Shown here piece by piece: positions 2,622-63,630 of a stretch of DNA of 64,000 nt; within the stretch, counting starts at the first letter, position 1; each line of letters begins with the position of its first letter. The notes under the pieces were generated by a model. That model saw nothing but the letters and a program-made list of their open reading frames with translations. It ran no database searches and was not told where the DNA came from. The stretch spans positions 6,835-70,834 of the forward strand of contig DASTOJ010000305.1 of the NCBI GenBank assembly GCA_035762565.1. Direction: 5' to 3'. Position numbers and translations under genes: made by a program. This DNA is from Candidatus Methylomirabilota bacterium. Its GTDB lineage: Bacteria; Methylomirabilota; Methylomirabilia; Rokubacteriales; CSP1-6.

Positions 2622-2696
2622 TGGTGGCGGTGGGAGGAATTGAACCTCCGACACGGGGCTTATGAGACCCCTGCTCTGCCGCTGAGCTACACCGCC
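2622..2696 (-). tRNA. tRNA-Met (anticodon CAT), elongator-type. Could alternatively be tRNA-Ile2 (lysidine-modified CAU).
   Basis: Reverse complement reads GGCGGTGTAGCTCAGCGGCAGAGCAGGGGTCTCATAAGCCCCGTGTCGGAGGTTCAATTCCTCCCACCGCCACCA. The cloverleaf is complete: 7-bp acceptor GGCGGTG/CACCGCC, D-arm GCTC..GAGC, anticodon loop CTCATAA, T-arm GGAGG-TTCAATT-CCTCC, encoded CCA. The 1:72 pair is G:C and the anticodon-stem 31:39 pair is T-G, not the three consecutive G:C pairs expected of an initiator, which argues against an initiator tRNA. Confidence 0.85.
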
Positions 2697-2824
2697 GTGG
2701 CTGGAGACCGCACGGAGTTGCGGGAGGGGATTTTACCGTAAGCTGGGGCCGGCTGCCGCGTTCTCCGAACGGTGCGATAATCACGGGCCGATGGCGGCCC
2801 CGGCGTGCGCAGGAGGGATGTCAG

Positions 2825-2849
2825 TGGCGAAACCTTTGCTATATAATCC
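2825..2849 (+). promoter_or_regulatory. Candidate sigma54 (-24/-12) promoter TGGCGA-N5-TTGCT. A TATATAAT / extended -10 (TGcTATATA) overlaps it.
   Basis: TGGC at 2825-2828 and TTGC at 2836-2839 give the canonical GG-N10-GC spacing, about 55 nt upstream of the ATG at 2896. An NtrC-type activator is encoded 5 kb away. Confidence 0.35.
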
Positions 2850-2895
2850 GCGCGGCTCATACGTCTGGCCGGGTACGGCTCGGAGGAACCTTCAC

Positions 2896-3192
2896 ATGCT
2901 GTTCCGCACGCATCCTTGGCAAGACGGACCTGTGCTCCGCAGCAACGACGTCGAGGACGACGACGGGTTCGACGACGAGGTGCTGGACGACGACGCCGAC
3001 GACGAGCTCGACGACGACGAAGACGAGGAAGACGTGCTGGAGACCGACGAGACCGACGAAGCCGACGAGGACGACGAGGACGACGACGAGCTGGACCTGG
3101 ACGACGACGAGCTCGAGGAGGAGGAGGAGGAAGAAGACGACGAGCTTGACGACGACGAGCTCGAGGACGAGGAAGACGACGACGACAAGTAG
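2896..3192 (+). CDS. Hyper-acidic small protein (98 aa, about 70% Asp/Glu, e.g. DDDELDLDDDELEEEEEEEDDELDDDELEDEEDDDDK).
   Basis: ORF 2791..3192. Start chosen at the ATG at 2896, preceded by GGAGGaacc (an RBS, 8-nt spacing). Low-complexity GAC/GAG codon repeats. The antisense poly-Ser ORF is rejected. Confidence 0.5.
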   Translation: MLFRTHPWQDGPVLRSNDVEDDDGFDDEVLDDDADDELDDDEDEEDVLETDETDEADEDDEDDDELDLDDDELEEEEEEEDDELDDDELEDEEDDDDK

Positions 3193-3221
3193 CTCCTCAT
3201 TCGGGTTGGGAGGCGCTTGCA

Positions 3222-3965
3222 ATGGCACTACTCAGTGGTGACGGCTGGCTGTTCCTCCTGCGGTGGTTTCACTTCCTGGCGGGGATCACGTGGATCGGGA
3301 TGCTGTACTACTTCAACTTCGTCCAGACGCCCTTCTTCGGCAGCAAGTTCGTCGCCGACAACGCAGCCGTGCGCAGCGGGATCGTGCGCGGCGGGCTGCT
3401 GAACTCGGCCCTCTGGTGGTTCCGGTGGGGCGCGATGTTCACCTTCATCACGGGCTGGCTCTACATCCTGCACATCGCCTTCGCGCAGTACGGCGGGATC
3501 GGCGGCTTCTTCGCGACCTCGTACGGCTGGAAGATCTTCTTCGGAGGCATGCTGGGTACCGTGATGTGGGCGAACGTCTGGTTCGTGATCTGGCCGGCCC
3601 AGCAGATCGTGATGCGCTCGGCCGAGCAGGTGGCGACCGGCGGCCAGGCCGTTCCCGACGCGGCGGCGCGCGGCGCGCGGGCCGGCGTCGCCTCCCGCAC
3701 CAACACGATGCTGTCGATCCCGATGCTGTTCTTCATGGGCGCGGCGTCGCACCTGCGGATGCCCGATCCGGCCGGCGGCGGGGCGCAGTGGGCGGCGTTG
3801 ATCCTGCTGGCCATCGTCATCGTGGCGGTCGAGATCAACGCGCTGGCCGGCCCGGCCAGCCCCGCGACGGGCGGCAAGAAGGTCCTCGCCACCGTCAACG
3901 GCACGTTCTGGGCGGGATTCGTGCTCACCGCCATCCTGTATTTCGGGCTGGAGATCATCCTCTAG
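3222..3965 (+). CDS. Integral membrane protein (247 aa, about 6 TM) containing the W/F/H-rich motif WFHFLAGITWIGMLYYFNF. Family not confidently assigned.
   Basis: ORF 3222..3965. Strongly hydrophobic periodic segments. It starts 30 nt after the acidic-protein stop, so the two are probably co-transcribed. Confidence 0.6.
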   Translation: MALLSGDGWLFLLRWFHFLAGITWIGMLYYFNFVQTPFFGSKFVADNAAVRSGIVRGGLLNSALWWFRWGAMFTFITGWLYILHIAFAQYGGIGGFFATSYGWKIFFGGMLGTVMWANVWFVIWPAQQIVMRSAEQVATGGQAVPDAAARGARAGVASRTNTMLSIPMLFFMGAASHLRMPDPAGGGAQWAALILLAIVIVAVEINALAGPASPATGGKKVLATVNGTFWAGFVLTAILYFGLEIIL

Positions 3966-4028
3966 ACGAGGGCGCTCCGCCGGGCGGGCTTGGCCCCAGG
4001 ACCGAGCCCGCCTTCCTCGGCACCGGCG

Positions 4029-4349
4029 TTACTTCAGGAACGCGGCCAGCGCCGGAACATCGCCGGCCAGGTGTGGCTGGGGTGGCATGACCGATGTCGG
4101 CCGCTGGGGCCTGTAACCCTGAGGATAGGTTCCGCGCTGGATCTTCGCCTCCAGCAGCTCCCGAGATGCCCCCTTGACCGCGGGTCCCACCGGACCGGGT
4201 TGGGCCGGATCCGGCCCGTGGCAGGAGGCGCACTGGCTGAGATAGACCTGCCGCCCCCGCTCGGCCAGGGGACCGAGCGGCTCGCGCCCGCACGCGGCCA
4301 GCGCCAGGGCAGCGGCGCCCGCCGCGAGCAGGGCGCGCCCGGGCCTCAC
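4029..4349 (-). CDS. Class I c-type cytochrome lipoprotein (106 aa). Carries a CASCH haem-binding motif and a distal Met (SVMPP).
   Basis: GTG start at 4347-4349 overlaps the upstream gene's stop (GTGA). Signal peptide with lipobox LALAAC, CxxCH, and a class-I-cytochrome-like tail. Confidence 0.6.
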   Translation of the reverse strand: MRPGRALLAAGAAALALAACGREPLGPLAERGRQVYLSQCASCHGPDPAQPGPVGPAVKGASRELLEAKIQRGTYPQGYRPQRPTSVMPPQPHLAGDVPALAAFLK

Positions 4350-4927
4350 GCCAGATCGTCCGCGAGGCGGCGACGCGTGGCGGGCGTCAGCACGGTGCGA
4401 CCCCGATCGCCCGGATGGTCGGCGACGAGCGCGACCTCGGCCTCGGGAAAGAGGCGACGGGCGGCCTGGGGCAGCGCGAAACGGACGAAGTGCACGGCCG
4501 AGAGCTTGCCCAGCTCCTCGTCGGAGTGGCCGGCTTCGAACACGCCGGGGACGACGTGGGGGCCCACCTCGAGCCGCACATACCCGCCGGTGTCGATACC
4601 CAGGAGTGCGTCCAGCACGGGCCTGATCCGGGCCGACTCGCCGATCTCGATGAACATCGTCGCCGCCAGCTCCCCCACGCGGGGCAGCAGCGTGTTGTAG
4701 ACGGCGACCTCCTCGGCGACCTTGCCGTCGTCCACGAGGCGCTCGGCGCGGACCATTTCCTGGATCTGGAACCACACCGTCTCGCGGTTCTCGAACACGA
4801 AGGACAGATAGCGCCCGACGCTGACCCGGCGATCGGCCTTGAGCGCGATGACCGCGCGCCGGCGGGCGTCGCGTACCTTCTCGTACTCGTAGAGGTTGAG
4901 GATCTCGTCCGGTGCCAGGGGCTTCAT
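4346..4927 (-). CDS. DUF3501 family protein (193 aa).
   Basis: ORF 4346..5233. Start chosen at MKPLAPDEILNLYEYEKV, whose ATG overlaps the upstream gene's stop (ATGA, 4924-4927). The sequence resembles DUF3501 proteins, which are usually found next to CCG-domain Fe-S proteins. Confidence 0.65.
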   Translation of the reverse strand: MKPLAPDEILNLYEYEKVRDARRRAVIALKADRRVSVGRYLSFVFENRETVWFQIQEMVRAERLVDDGKVAEEVAVYNTLLPRVGELAATMFIEIGESARIRPVLDALLGIDTGGYVRLEVGPHVVPGVFEAGHSDEELGKLSAVHFVRFALPQAARRLFPEAEVALVADHPGDRGRTVLTPATRRRLADDLA

Positions 4928-6219
4928 GGGCCGTCGTCGAAGCCGTACGCGTGGGCGAGCACCTGGATCGGGTGCCGGGGCTCGACACCGGTGCCCTGGG
5001 CGATCTGCATCCCGGCCAGCGGGCAGTCGGTGGCCACGGTGGGCGCGCCACCGGCCCGGACCGCGTCGAAGAGAGGCTGGGCCACTCTCATCGACAGGTC
5101 GAAGTACTGCGTCTTGAAGCCCCAGGTGCCGTCGACCGCCGAGCAGCGCTCGACGACGTTCACCGCGGCGCCGGGAATGGCCCGCAGCACGTCCGCCGAC
5201 CGCGTCCCGATGTTCTGCGCGCGCAGGTGGCACGGCACGTGGTATGTGACGGCGCCCACCGGACGGCTGAAGCGCGTGTCGAGCGCGCCCTCGGCGAGGA
5301 GCCGGGCCAGGTACTCGAACAGGTCGCGCGTGTTGGCGGCGACGAGCCGCGCGTCCGCGGAGTCGTCCAGCCAGGGGTACTCCTGCTTGAGCATGTAGCT
5401 GCAGGTCGGCCCCGGGGAGACGATCTCACGGCCCTCCCGCACGGCCGCCGCCAGCGCCCGCGCGTTGTCGCGCACGAGCGCGCGGCACTCGTTCACCGCA
5501 CCGCCGTCGAGGTAAGGCATCCCGCAGCAGCGCTGGGCCGGCACGCTGACGTCGACGCCGTTGCGCTCGAGCACGCGCACGGCGGCCCGGCCGATGGCCG
5601 GGGCGTTGTACTCGACCGTGCACGTCGCGAACAGCGCGACCTTGCGCGTGGTCGCCTTGCCGCCTTCGGCCGCGGCCGGCTTCGCCGTGGACTTGAACCA
5701 GGCCGAGAACGTCTGGCGGTGGAACCTCGGCAGCTGCCGCGCCCGGTGAATGCCCGCCACCGCCTCCATGAACGCCCGGTGCACCCCCCGCTCGTTCATC
5801 CAGTTCGACAGCGGCGCCGTCAGGCTCCCCAGCTTGCCGACGAGGTTGGTGTTGCCGAGCATCCGGTCCTGGAACGACACCCCGGCCCGCCGCGCCTCCG
5901 CCGCCCGCGCCCGCAGCATCAACCGCGGGAAGTCCACGGCCCACCGGTGCGGCGGCGTGTACGGACAGTGGTTGTAGCAGAGCTTGCATTGGTAGCAGAG
6001 ATCCACGACCTCCTTGACATCGGACGCCGGCAACTTCTCGACGTCCCCGTCCACCGCCTCGACGTCCAGCCGATCGAACATGACCTTGAACGACGGACAC
6101 AACGGCAAACACCGCCGGCACCCCGCGCAAATGTCATAGACCCGCCTGAGCTCCGTATCGACCCGGCCGAGGTCCCAGAACTCCGGCCGCCGAAGGTCGA
6201 GCGCCGGATCGTCAGACAC
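4924..6219 (-). CDS. (Fe-S)-binding oxidoreductase subunit: two 4Fe-4S ferredoxin motifs (CAGCRRCLPLCP, CYQCKLCYNHCP) plus two CCG cysteine-rich domains. GlcF / GlpC / heterodisulfide-reductase-D-like.
   Basis: ORF 4924..6219, 431 aa. CxxCxxCxxxCP appears twice, followed by CCG-type Cys clusters (ATCTVEY..CCGMPY, HVPCHLRAQ..CSAVDGTWGF..DCPLAG). Confidence 0.8.
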   Translation of the reverse strand: MSDDPALDLRRPEFWDLGRVDTELRRVYDICAGCRRCLPLCPSFKVMFDRLDVEAVDGDVEKLPASDVKEVVDLCYQCKLCYNHCPYTPPHRWAVDFPRLMLRARAAEARRAGVSFQDRMLGNTNLVGKLGSLTAPLSNWMNERGVHRAFMEAVAGIHRARQLPRFHRQTFSAWFKSTAKPAAAEGGKATTRKVALFATCTVEYNAPAIGRAAVRVLERNGVDVSVPAQRCCGMPYLDGGAVNECRALVRDNARALAAAVREGREIVSPGPTCSYMLKQEYPWLDDSADARLVAANTRDLFEYLARLLAEGALDTRFSRPVGAVTYHVPCHLRAQNIGTRSADVLRAIPGAAVNVVERCSAVDGTWGFKTQYFDLSMRVAQPLFDAVRAGGAPTVATDCPLAGMQIAQGTGVEPRHPIQVLAHAYGFDDGP

Positions 6220-6386
6220 GGACGCCGCCGATCGCTGAATGCATCATGGTCGAGTGCGCATGGACCGAGGAGTCAATCAGCTCCCACCGAGGGCGCGAGG
6301 GGCGGGCGGCGGGCGCCCGCGTCCAGAATCACACGGAACGGCGAAAGCCCCCGGCCCCGCCCGCCCCTCGCGCCCGGGGATGGAAG

Positions 6387-6836
6387 CTAGATCGCCTCCG
6401 CCGGCTCCTTGCCCGCGATCTGCGTCAGGCCTTTGCCGAACCGGCCGGCGTGCGACTTCTCGGCCTTGGCGAGCGTCTCGAACCACTCCGCCAGCTCGGC
6501 AAACCCCTCGTCGCGCGCGGTCTTGGCCATGCCCGGGTACATCTGCGTGTACTCGTAGGTCTCGCCCGCCACCGCGGCCTTGAGGTTCTTCTCGGTCTTG
6601 CCGATGGGCTCGCCGGTGGCCGGATCGCCGACCTCCTTGAGGAAGTCGAGGTGCCCGAAGGCGTGCCCGGTCTCGGCGTCCGCGGTGTCCTTGAAGAGTC
6701 CGGCGATGTCAGGGTAGCCCTCGATGTCGGCGACCCGCGCGAAGTAGAGATAGCGGCGGTTGGCCTGCGACTCGCCGGCGAACGCTTCCTTCAGGTTCTC
6801 GAAACTCTTAGTCCCCTTGAGGCTTTGCCCTGGCAT
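6387..6836 (-). CDS. Rubrerythrin / ferritin-like di-iron protein (149 aa).
   Basis: Motifs [13 protein letters not shown] and [25 protein letters not shown] are typical of the rubrerythrin N-domain; no rubredoxin tail is present. Confidence 0.8.
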
Positions 6837-7311
6837 AGCTCCTCCTTGCTGGTGGACGGGTGAGGCCGCCGCCGCGCCGGCAGGCGCCGCAACGGCCGTA
6901 AAACTCGATGCGCTGGGTCAGGACCTCGAAGCCCGTGCGGGACGCCACACAGGTGCGCACGCCTGGCGCGGCGAGCGCCGGCACGTCGTAGATGCGCCCG
7001 CACGCCACGCAGGTGAAGTGGTCGTGGGGGGCAATGTTGCCGTCGAACCGCATGCCGGCGAGGTCGGCGCGCTCGTTCAGAAGGCCCTCGGCCGCCAGCA
7101 TCCGGAGGTTGCGGTACACCGTGGCCAGGCTCACGCGCGGCAGGCGCCGCCGCACCAGCCGGTAGACGGCCGCCACCGACGGATGCGCGTCGCTGGCGCG
7201 CACGGTGTCGAGGATCAGCCGGCGCGGGCGGGTGAGCCGTTTGCCGCGGGCGCGCAGCGCCGCCGCCTGTCCGTCCTCCCCGGCCGGCCCCTTCTTGGTA
7301 ATCATTCGCAT
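6808..7311 (-). CDS. Fur-family transcriptional regulator (PerR-like), 167 aa.
   Basis: Winged-helix N-terminus (RLTRPRRLILDTVRASDAHPSVAAVYRLV), then HDHFTCVACG and a C-terminal CxxC. The 3' end overlaps the rubrerythrin start, suggesting an oxidative-stress pair. Confidence 0.75.
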   Translation of the reverse strand: MRMITKKGPAGEDGQAAALRARGKRLTRPRRLILDTVRASDAHPSVAAVYRLVRRRLPRVSLATVYRNLRMLAAEGLLNERADLAGMRFDGNIAPHDHFTCVACGRIYDVPALAAPGVRTCVASRTGFEVLTQRIEFYGRCGACRRGGGLTRPPARRSYARAKPQGD

Positions 7312-7328: not shown

Positions 7329-7358
7329 ATTGTACCGGCGGCCCCGGGGCGATGTCAA
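7329..7358 (-). promoter_or_regulatory. Near-consensus sigma70 promoter on the minus strand upstream of the fur-like gene: -35 TTGACA, 18-nt spacer, -10 TACAAT.
   Basis: Plus strand reads ATTGTA (7329-7334) and TGTCAA (7353-7358). The -10 lies about 18 nt upstream of the fur ATG, so the leader is very short. Confidence 0.4.
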
Positions 7359-7394: not shown

Positions 7395-7853
7395 TCATCG
7401 CAGCCCCCGGGCTTCCATGAGCGCCGTCGTCCGGCGCCACGTGCCGGTCAGCACGTCGTCGAGCGCGGCCTCGGCGCGATAGGCGGCGATCGTCGCCGAG
7501 ACCTGCTCGCGGGCGGAGTCCGCCTGCCCCGCCCTGGCGCGCGCCTCGGCGGCGGCGCCGAGCGTTTGCTGCGCGCGGGCGAGCGACGACAGCATCGAGC
7601 GGGCGGCCCCCAGTTGCACGTGGAGCGCCGCCGGCCGGGCGGCCGGCTCGGCGACCGCAACCGTGCACCGGGCCGGGGCGGCGCTGATCGAGGTCGCCAG
7701 CACGATCTCCGGACGCCAGAGCGCGACGCCGGCGGGCGTCTTGAGTCGGCGGCGAGGCGAGGCGAGGTGGAGGGGAAGCGGCGACGCGATGCTCATGGCC
7801 ATCGAACACGGCAACGCGGATGCCACACCGCGCGCGCCGCAAGCCCGCGTCAT
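7395..7853 (-). CDS. Possible hypothetical protein (152 aa, Ala/Arg-rich). Low confidence.
   Basis: The only ORF of any length in the 566-nt gap between the fur promoter and the response-regulator stop. GC3 is high, but an overlapping plus-strand 88-aa ORF is equally GC3-rich. No motif recognised. Confidence 0.2.
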   Translation of the reverse strand: MTRACGARGVASALPCSMAMSIASPLPLHLASPRRRLKTPAGVALWRPEIVLATSISAAPARCTVAVAEPAARPAALHVQLGAARSMLSSLARAQQTLGAAAEARARAGQADSAREQVSATIAAYRAEAALDDVLTGTWRRTTALMEARGLR

Positions 7854-7877: not shown

Positions 7878-9293
<1,416 letters not shown>

Positions 9294-62921: not shown

Positions 62922-63126
62922 CTCAGCAGGGTCTGGAGGCCCCGGCGTCAGCGCGCCGAGCCCGCCAGTGTCGAGGCTGCATCGACCAGTGTCCGCCTGA
63001 CATCGGGCACGACACGACCGCGCCGCCCGCCCCGCGAGGTACCTGTCGTTGCATCATTCCCACCCTGGCCCCCGTCTTGCTCAGCGCGTGCGACACGACG
63101 TCGCGCACTGCGGCGAGGAGGCCAGG

Positions 63127-63630
63127 ATGACCGAGCTGATGGATCTCACGCTCGCGCGGCGGGTGGACCGCCTGGAGCGCGCCCACCGCCGGTGGCGTCG
63201 TCTGGCGATGGTTTCGGCCGTCGGCCTGGTGGCGGTCGGGCTCATGGGCCAGAAGCCGGCGCCGCGGATCGTCGAAGCCGAGCGCTTCATCCTCCGCGAC
63301 GCAGCCGGTCGCGCACGGGCCGAACTGGTGGTGGACGGCGAGCAGTCGGTGGCGCTGCGCTTCAAGGATGCCGACAGCATGCCGCGCCTGTCCGTCGGCA
63401 CCGAGAACGGCGCCGCCGTCGTGGTGCTCAACGAGCAGGGCGGCCGCGTCCGGGCAGGTCTGGTCACGCTGCCGCACGGCGCCCCCGCCCTCACCTTCTA
63501 CGACAGCAACGGCAAGAACCGCGCGGAGCTCGCCCTCACCCGGGAAGGCGCCCCCGCCCTCACCATCACCGACCGCGACGGCTTCCTCGCCTGGAAAACC
63601 CCCGAGCCCCCCGGCCTCACCGGCCGCTAG
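63127..63630 (+). CDS. Membrane-anchored hypothetical protein with five ~23-aa internal repeats (phi-x-phi-x-D-xx-G-xx-R-a-x-L), 167 aa.
   Basis: RBS GGAGG. TM helix LAMVSAVGLVAVGLMG. Repeats: FILRDAAGRARAELVV / LRFKDADSMPRLSVGT / VVLNEQGGRVRAGLVT / TFYDSNGKNRAELALT / ITDRDGFLAWKT. Confidence 0.45.
   Translation: MTELMDLTLARRVDRLERAHRRWRRLAMVSAVGLVAVGLMGQKPAPRIVEAERFILRDAAGRARAELVVDGEQSVALRFKDADSMPRLSVGTENGAAVVVLNEQGGRVRAGLVTLPHGAPALTFYDSNGKNRAELALTREGAPALTITDRDGFLAWKTPEPPGLTGR

Follow-up and report, generated by a model that had tools for sequence, protein, structure and literature searches.

A stretch of 64,000 nucleotides from a Candidatus Methylomirabilota bacterium (contig DASTOJ010000305.1 of assembly GCA_035762565.1, hereafter the window, in whose numbering all coordinates are given) carries a compact module in which a gene for an extremely acidic protein of 98 amino acids (2896-3192, plus strand) precedes the gene for a six-helix membrane protein of 247 amino acids (3222-3965, plus strand), which in turn meets the gene for a mono-haem c-type cytochrome (4029-4349, minus strand) tail to tail. 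Judged by the loci we compared, the pairing of the acidic gene with the membrane gene is strict and previously undescribed, and the cytochrome c, overlooked in an earlier sequence-only reading of this DNA, is a conserved partner of the membrane protein. We propose that the two-gene operon (2896-3965) encodes a disordered, polyanionic cytoplasmic protein that would serve as an accessory to a membrane redox pair, that transcription would start from a sigma-70-type promoter, and that the NtrC-type activator encoded nearby would act on a promoter of its own. We give this explanation as a whole a probability of roughly 0.55.

What emerges is a split, mis-annotated relative of the urate oxidase PuuD with a lineage-specific polyanionic accessory. 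Thousands of database entries labelled 'urate hydroxylase PuuD' or 'membrane protein' represent a distinct two-gene form with a separate cytochrome c, conserved from Rokubacteria to Myxococcota, Planctomycetota, Spirochaetes and others, which points to a common and unstudied membrane redox function. The acidic protein itself is among the most extreme natural bacterial polyanions. It has a fixed genetic partner, which is unusual for polyanions, and its function is therefore open to testing.

The acidic gene and its membrane-gene partner

Our comparison is built on 80 genome loci fetched with the membrane protein, to which the closest metagenome relatives were added. In 24 of the 80 genome loci, all of them labelled Rokubacteria-type, the membrane gene is preceded at 24-70 nt by the end of an open reading frame (ORF) with an extreme run of Asp and Glu, and no such ORF stands beside the membrane-gene homologues of other phyla in this fetched set. 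In the window the distance is 29 nt, in agreement with the 30 nt estimated earlier. With metagenome relatives included, the acidic family spans 27 loci, its members being 54-130 amino acids long (median 93) and 57-72% Asp plus Glu. When metagenomes were scanned for the DNA that encodes the N-terminal motif, 104 of 120 hits ran on into an acidic ORF; wherever enough downstream sequence was available the membrane gene follows within 200 nt (90/90 loci). The loci closest to that of the window all come from Rokubacteria/Methylomirabilota. The pairing of a hyper-acidic with a membrane protein had been called unusual from the sequence alone, and we find it to be strict. Our search of the literature on hyper-acidic bacterial proteins, incomplete in its coverage, gave no account of the acidic family.

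The window's protein contains 39 Asp and 25 Glu, or 65% of all residues and 77% of residues 17-98, so that the earlier figure of about 70% was a fair one. It opens with MLFRTHPW and then passes into the Asp/Glu tail. All 27 loci share a GGAGG-type ribosome-binding site (RBS) and a conserved N-terminus, which reads M-Q-F-R-T-x-P-W in most members and M-A-W-L-G-x-R-P-W in one clade. The RBS read from the window sequence is GGAGGAA (2882-2888, plus strand), and CGGAGGA before the ATG is kept in the 27 loci. Synonymous codons alternate inside the N-terminal motif across these loci (TTC/TTT, CGC/CGG/CGA and CCT/CCC/CCG), and the reading frame of the acidic gene is therefore fixed.

The tail is built on a different principle. 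Asp makes up 55% of it, Glu 25% and Leu 7%; Ala, Val and Phe are minor components, and Lys and Arg are nearly absent. This composition is kept across the family while neither sequence nor length is. Two near-identical contigs from two samples (L081 and L082) differ by an in-frame indel of 6 nt in the GAG/GAC run, giving products of 97 and 95 amino acids, which suggests repeat slippage and length variation within populations. Pfam returned no family for the acidic protein with either of two in-frame queries (2791-3192 and 2896-3192). Disordered polyanionic proteins and tails are known elsewhere, among them prothymosin alpha, the poly-D/E folding helper DAXX and the E. coli MsyB solubility tags. 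The acidic family resembles these in its extreme Asp/Glu content, in having no predicted fold and in conserving composition over sequence; it differs from them in its fixed N-terminal motif and obligatory linkage to a membrane gene, whereas they are eukaryotic or stand alone.

Taken together, the comparative evidence shows that the acidic ORF is a genuine conserved gene, as the sequence-only reading had assumed while naming the artefact as its own alternative. That the ORF is no gene but a low-complexity artefact of GAC/GAG repeats has next to no chance of being right: all three forward and two reverse frames are indeed open across the repeat, and the exact 98-residue sequence was not found in the protein collection, but start codon, RBS and N-terminal motif are conserved through synonymous changes, the Asp/Glu frame is open in every locus and ends at its short distance from the membrane gene, gene callers predict the ORF in relatives and the linkage to the membrane gene is without exception, so that conservation refutes this reading.

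A membrane protein with a separate cytochrome c

The membrane gene has an RBS of its own, GGGAGG (3208-3213, plus strand, read from the sequence). Its product had been thought not assignable to a known family by eye, and here a profile search decides otherwise: the protein matches Pfam PF06181, Urate_ox_N (formerly DUF989), with an E-value of 3e-14 and 53.6 bits against a cut-off of 26.9. The match is partial and falls into two stretches, the better covering profile positions 174-262 of 295, and the protein is a short member of the family that lacks the cytochrome domain. Its AlphaFold2 model (mean predicted local distance difference test score 85, predicted template modelling score 0.83) shows six long helices, which confirms the six transmembrane segments counted earlier. 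The accompanying description of a protein rich in Trp, Phe and His holds for Trp (13) and Phe (22) but fails for His, of which there are 3 in 247 residues; Cys is absent.

At least 7993 relatives are present in the protein collection, most of them 240-250 amino acids long and called 'uncharacterized membrane protein'. The sequence of the window protein recurs unchanged as NCBI HEU4371335.1, a record named 'urate hydroxylase PuuD' that belongs to a Methylomirabilota metagenome-assembled genome. Database names within the family are inconsistent: three members (P0102, P0083 and P0121) carry the names 'antitermination protein NusG', 'urate hydroxylase PuuD' and 'uncharacterized membrane protein', the first of which is clearly wrong and the second of which our evidence does not bear out. 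NCBIfam gave no family for the protein, and no solved structure matches it by sequence. A Foldseek search of the PDB returned nothing significant, the best hit being cytochrome b of bc1 complexes (E 0.45, TM-score 0.3).

Residue conservation was assessed over 80 membrane-protein sequences with about ten phylum-level labels. Invariant polar and aromatic residues of the first four helices are R14, W15, H17, N32, Q35, W65-G70 (including R68), N118, R159 and N161. His17 is present in 78 of the 80 sequences and His177 in 74, and most of the 80 contain no Cys. The way Arg and Lys are distributed over the loops suggests that both ends of the protein face outward, an orientation that would bring His17 and His177 close to the outer face. 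The HemJ/CopD-like group of small four-helix membrane proteins likewise has an almost invariant His early in its first helix, and in HemJ this His binds haem b. The window protein shares with them its small helical build and the position of this His; Pfam shows no similarity of the membrane protein to HemJ/CopD-like families even at E-values up to 5.

The second constant partner lies on the other side of the membrane gene. The cytochrome c gene (4029-4349, minus strand) encodes 106 amino acids with a CASCH haem motif and a lipoprotein-type signal (LAAC), and matches Pfam Cytochrom_C and Cytochrome_CBB3. By tblastn, 84 of 90 loci, drawn from about ten phyla, have such a gene beside the membrane gene. 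It is convergent with the membrane gene in 77 of these and on the same strand in 7, and the convergent gap is roughly -40 to 300 nt in most loci. CXXCH is found in 82 of the 84 cytochrome partners, and a lipobox-type Cys in the window copy and in 37 of the 84 relatives. Clustering of neighbours in the 80 loci had found no universal neighbour; the length and E-value thresholds used there missed the cytochrome c, which the direct tblastn search recovered. Between the two convergent genes of the window, a G+C-rich hairpin (3971-4030) folds at -39.5 kcal/mol with a z-score of -2.4 against shuffles and has no T run. It is likely to stop transcription from both sides as a putative terminator. Within the incomplete coverage of our literature search, we found no description of a pair formed by a six-helix DUF989 protein and a cytochrome c.

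The Agrobacterium fabrum membrane urate oxidase PuuD (COG3748) is a fusion of an eight-helix DUF989 domain with a C-terminal cytochrome c (PMC4562309). Because two polypeptides here carry the two domains that are fused in PuuD, we take them to form a membrane redox pair. We propose a model where electrons pass between a cytoplasmic or membrane-side substrate and the lipid-anchored periplasmic cytochrome c, possibly with the help of a haem held by His17 and His177 close to the outer face. The acidic protein has no signal peptide and would therefore stay in the cytoplasm. Its N-terminal motif might dock on the Arg/Lys-rich cytoplasmic loops of the membrane protein, or allow translation beside them, and its tail could then act as a tethered polyanion, serving as a sink for cations or protons or as an electrostatic shield. 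The acidic protein would be an accessory specific to the Rokubacteria/Methylomirabilota lineage.

Several points weigh against this model. The six-helix DUF989 form is known from genes and a predicted structure. The case for haem binding consists of two conserved His and a fold likeness to cytochrome b that is not significant, and the case for contact between the acidic and the membrane protein consists of gene linkage. The convergent layout of the membrane and cytochrome c genes is unusual for partners, and in this arrangement the two cannot be co-transcribed.

Promoter of the acidic operon

The start of the acidic ORF is separated from a divergent tRNA-Met gene by an intergenic stretch of 199 nt. 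Within it, TGGCGAAACCTTTGCT at 2825-2840 (plus strand) is an exact match to TGGC-N7-TTGCW (TGGCGA-N5-TTGCT), and 55 nt lie between its last base and the ATG at 2896. The sequence-only reading was thus correct in both the distance and the exact GG-N10-GC spacing of a -24/-12 promoter, and it concluded that sigma-54 drives the acidic operon. The same place also holds a sigma-70-like box, TATATAAT, upstream of the acidic gene. Here a -35-like ATGTCA, matching the consensus at 4 of 6 positions, is followed after a spacer of 18 nt by TATAAT (2842-2847) and then CCGC, so that a sigma-70-type promoter at 2818-2847 (plus strand; 10 of 12 in the consensus scan) overlaps the sigma-54-like motif. To weigh the two we compared 93 distinct regions upstream of the acidic gene, 28 from the window's subclade and 65 from outside it, scoring sigma-54 sites by consensus and conservation rather than with a published weight matrix.

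The -10 element is the older and more general of the two. A hexamer TA[TC]A[AC]T stands at the same place in 91 of the 93 regions, usually followed by CC, and the common form of the promoter, TTTG[CT]TATAATCC, is an extended -10 (TGnTATAAT). As this form is common to nearly all orthologous promoters, the TTGC that had been taken as a -12 element belongs to an old -10 region. Outside the subclade TGGC is found at -24 in 0 of 65 regions; five contain a GG in register as part of TGGA, CGGG or TGGG, and in none of them does C follow. The hexamer is of a kind that is rare in this DNA: TAnAAT occurs 8 times in the 64-kb window, the G+C content of which is 72%. The form TAnAATCC is common to the promoters of fur (TTGACA-18-TACAATCC, 7329-7358, minus strand), tRNA-Met (TAAAATCC) and the acidic gene (TATAATCC, 2842-2849). 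In most loci outside the subclade (L091, L099, L149 and others) a TTGACA-like box lies 14-15 nt from the hexamer; it is too close for a standard -35 and may be an operator or a lineage peculiarity.

The subclade presents another picture. Its 28 promoters are all longer by two bases (TGCT[AG]TATA[AC]T) and without the TTGACA-like box, and 25 of them keep the GG-N10-GC register, 18 with TGGC, 4 with CGGC and 3 with other forms, across ten different spacers. The 7 loci closest to the window all have GGC at 2826-2828 but differ at T2825 and in the spacer. The -10 of the subclade is either TATAAT or TATACT, with A2 and T6 always kept, and in three members a deletion of 1 nt breaks the sigma-54 spacing and leaves the -10 box in place.

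We consider it most likely that a sigma-70-type promoter is in use throughout the relatives of the acidic gene, and in our model transcription would start from the one with TATAAT at 2842-2847. The subclade supplies the points against this: its -35 is not conserved, and the insertion of 2 nt moves the TG of the extended -10 out of register. Because GG-N10-GC has been kept in spite of these losses, a working sigma-54 promoter has to be weighed, one that would transcribe the operon wholly or partly from 2825-2840 with the help of any enhancer-binding protein and would replace sigma-70 or compete with it. Besides its exact core and its intergenic position in the right orientation, this promoter is favoured by an excess of such sites in the window (6 exact matches to TGGC-N7-TTGCW, with 0.51 expected from shuffles), by the constancy of GGC amid varying bases, by the retention of the register across ten spacers in the very subclade that lost the TTGACA-like box and the extended -10, and by the use of sigma-54 in the source organism, seen at the conserved promoter beside the activator gene. 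Set against these are the origin of its '-12' in a sigma-70 -10 region far older than the GG, the selection to which the subclade hexamer is still subject, the three members that gave up the spacing and kept the -10, and the T of TGGC, which is C or G in 6 of the 25. An alignment of the closest loci shows no conserved palindrome upstream of the motif, where sites of enhancer-binding proteins other than the nearby activator are possible. In its match to the consensus the 2825 site equals or exceeds the site at 7825, which is validated phylogenetically, and consensus scoring alone therefore cannot decide which sigma factor is used. On this balance sigma-54 transcription of the operon is possible but clearly less probable than not; that the overlapping site also works in the window's subclade, where it would have arisen and may add a second mode of control, has about one chance in three. 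The series of promoters is, in any event, a small natural experiment in how a sigma-54 site might arise over a sigma-70 -10 box.

The remaining exact matches in the window were also located. Those at 775, 21023, 24326 and 42829 lie within coding regions or at their edges. The match TGGCCC-N5-TTGCT at 63066-63081 (plus strand) is intergenic, about 45 nt before GAGGAGG and an ATG at 63127, and is likely to be a further sigma-54 promoter.

It is tempting to speculate more broadly. The membrane protein and cytochrome c could constitute a widespread, unrecognized transmembrane electron-transfer enzyme acting on a substrate other than urate, the Rokubacteria polyanion could, tethered at the cytoplasmic face, gate it or feed it with cations or protons, or else act as a translational sensor of the state of ribosomes and Mg2+, and the promoter of the subclade could be switching from sigma-70 to sigma-54 by way of the 2-nt insertion. 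In all its parts together we regard this as a long shot.

Leader, urate oxidase and activator

Could the acidic ORF be mainly a regulatory leader, in which the Asp/Glu run destabilizes ribosomes and the state of Mg2+ and ribosomes sets expression of the membrane gene? Translation breaks off, to a degree that depends on Mg2+, when an acidic run falls within the first 20-30 residues; bulky residues in the exit tunnel work against this, and MgtL controls mgtA through the destabilization of ribosomes by acidic residues (bioRxiv 10.1101/2021.02.02.429294). The acidic ORF has the right elements in part. Its Asp/Glu run begins about 17 residues from the N-terminus, it always lies directly upstream of the membrane gene, by 29 nt in the window, and it conserves a bulky N-terminus (F3, R4 and W8) and the composition of the tail rather than its sequence or length. 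In common with MgtL-type leaders, then, it places an acidic run near the N-terminus upstream of a membrane protein gene. MgtL, however, has 17 residues and an RNA switch, whereas here there are 98 codons in the window and 54-130 in the family, far beyond known leader peptides. A switch-like RNA structure was found neither in the 5' leader of the window's acidic gene, which folds no better than shuffles (z-score -0.3), nor in the alignment of relatives, and an Rfam scan returned the tRNA only. The membrane gene has its own RBS, and its homologues in other phyla do without the acidic ORF. We therefore think a purely regulatory role unlikely. The translational rule may still bear on the gene, for the conserved N-terminus may be what lets the acidic protein be made at all, its bulky residues occupying the exit tunnel; in this respect the acidic protein is a natural test of the rule.

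A conserved element GCGA(C/T)TCC, often in the loop of a small stem, stands about 40 nt before the RBS in most relatives (L003, L011, L017, L072 and others). It is deleted in the window, where it would fall near 2860, and in L086. We considered this element as a mask of the RBS and rejected it: RNAalifold gave no consensus structure among the relatives, and the window does without the element.

The database name of the membrane protein raises the question of whether it is PuuD itself, split from its cytochrome c. The Urate_ox_N match lies above the family threshold, NCBI uses the name, and a cytochrome c gene adjoins. The likeness extends to the combination of a membrane domain of the same superfamily with a mono-haem c-type cytochrome at the outer face, and to a predicted topology with both ends outside, again deduced from Arg/Lys positions in the loops. 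The differences are several: six helices instead of eight, a cytochrome c that is a separate lipoprotein encoded on the opposite strand instead of a fused C-terminal domain, a profile covered only in parts, no Cys in the window protein and no PuuD match in NCBIfam. The neighbouring genes concern oxidative stress or are unrelated, and none belongs to purine catabolism. We found no homologue of hydroxyisourate hydrolase in the window or the fetched loci, a weak negative in view of the query sequence used. A tblastn search of plasmids for a true PuuD to serve as a comparison found nothing. The paper that defines PuuD sets the shorter DUF989 forms aside on account of their different gene context and leaves their function unassigned (PMC4562309, Doniselli et al. 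2015). We hold the identity with PuuD to be very unlikely and conclude, by analogy, that the pair resembles PuuD in outline, in that its membrane domain would hand electrons on to a cytochrome c at the outer face, and should not be filed under that name; its substrate is probably not urate.

Nor does the pair coincide with the short variant of DUF989 already described, which has four helices and no cytochrome, for example in Pseudomonas and Magnetospirillum, and whose neighbours are PQQ genes, sodA, secDF and phytoene synthase, with no cytochrome c among them (PMC4562309). Both share the core helices (I, II, V and VI of PuuD) and lack a fused cytochrome. The form described here has six helices and a near-constant cytochrome c neighbour.

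The sequence-only reading had tied the promoter motif to an NtrC-type activator (7878-9293, minus strand) with the domains Response_reg, Sigma54_activat (E 7e-68) and HTH_8 and the loop GAFSGA. It is, as noted then, the only sigma-54 activator gene in the window and has no kinase gene next to it: its neighbours are a divergent uvrA and a small ORF, and the nearest kinase gene lies at 93-1748. The activator was supposed to bind an inverted repeat near the tRNA as its upstream activating sequence and so to switch on a sigma-54 promoter of the acidic operon. In favour of this, 11 related loci keep the activator in synteny with the module, and the motif has the repeat on its upstream side at a distance of about 115 nt. 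The same synteny, however, includes loci whose acidic-gene promoters lack GG at -24, and the activator has a target closer at hand.

Just after the activator gene, at 7825-7810 (minus strand), stands the conserved sigma-54 promoter TGGCAT-N5-TTGCC (TGGCATCCGCGTTGCC). A promoter of the form TGGC-N7-TTGC[CG] (TGGCAC-N5-TTGCC in relatives) occupies the same place in all 12 activator-carrying loci. A pattern search found two palindromes GGGAG-N3-CTCCC, 20 bp apart, at 7889-7901 (GGGAGGATCTCCC) and 7909-7921 (GGGAGCCGCTCCC), which places them 65-97 bp upstream of the promoter, and similar pairs occur in relatives. The window holds 3 such sites where 0.47 are expected, two of them in this pair, and we regard the pair as likely binding sites of the activator. 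Because promoter and paired palindromes adjoin the activator gene and the promoter is conserved, we see in it the activator's evident target. With an ATG 13-17 nt beyond the -12 element, the transcript is almost leaderless; its product (about 133 amino acids, 7395-7796, minus strand) belongs to no Pfam family. The palindrome GGGAG-N3/4-CTCCC is absent from 2697-2825 in the window and from the upstream regions of six relatives. Control of the acidic operon by this activator thus finds little footing here, and in our model the activator would drive its own neighbouring promoter instead.

The supposed activating sequence has a simpler account. The repeat, given earlier as CCGCA-N7-TGCGG at 2708-2724, is in fact CCGCA-N6-TGCGG at 2708-2723, and its sequence is unlike the activator palindromes. 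It lies on the minus strand between the -10-like box of the tRNA-Met gene (TAAAAT followed by CC, 2730-2735, minus strand, from the TAnAAT scan and presumably part of the tRNA promoter) and the 5' end of the tRNA at 2696. Relatives keep a stem at this place with compensatory changes of the pairs (CGCA/TGCG, CGCG/CGCG and CGCGA/TCGCG), and GGATT(T/C)TACC is conserved next to the tRNA. By an estimate from base composition, about two such 5-bp repeats are expected per 130 nt of this DNA. The repeat is most likely a small stem in the 5' leader of the pre-tRNA-Met. With the palindromes elsewhere and the repeat in a tRNA leader, the scheme in which the activator governs the acidic operon is largely refuted by these comparisons and is, to us, highly improbable.

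The tRNA-Met gene itself (2622-2696, minus strand; anticodon CAT; ARAGORN, with an Rfam tRNA score of 68 bits) is transcribed away from the acidic gene, and 50 distinct related loci share this divergent tRNA. It has a G1-C72 pair and a GGG/CCC anticodon stem, and elongator Met, initiator and lysidine-modified Ile tRNAs are all candidates for its identity.

The activator may touch the module by another route. In six genomes (L001, L003, L010, L011, L014 and L072) the activator, the sigma-54 promoter, two small ORFs and the cytochrome c gene follow closely on one strand, and the cytochrome c partner may there be under control of the activator and sigma-54. In the window a fur-rubrerythrin-CCG-DUF3501 block separates the activator's promoter from the cytochrome c gene, and fur has its own sigma-70-type promoter. 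A search of the literature on Rokubacteria together with sigma-54 found nothing relevant.

The neighbours of the module are the tRNA, DUF3501, a CCG iron-sulphur protein, rubrerythrin, Fur, the activator and UvrA. The block of DUF3501, CCG/4Fe-4S protein, rubrerythrin and Fur-family genes (4346-7311, minus strand) lies downstream of the cytochrome c gene, is present in about 18-27 related Rokubacteria loci and looks like an oxidative-stress unit. In a group of Binatia/Syntrophobacter-like loci (L056, L059, L061, L062, L064, L065 and L073-L075), genes for a polyprenyl synthase-like protein and a UbiE/MenG-like methyltransferase, judged from their translations alone, immediately precede the membrane gene and are encoded on the other strand, and these neighbours may hint at quinone metabolism.

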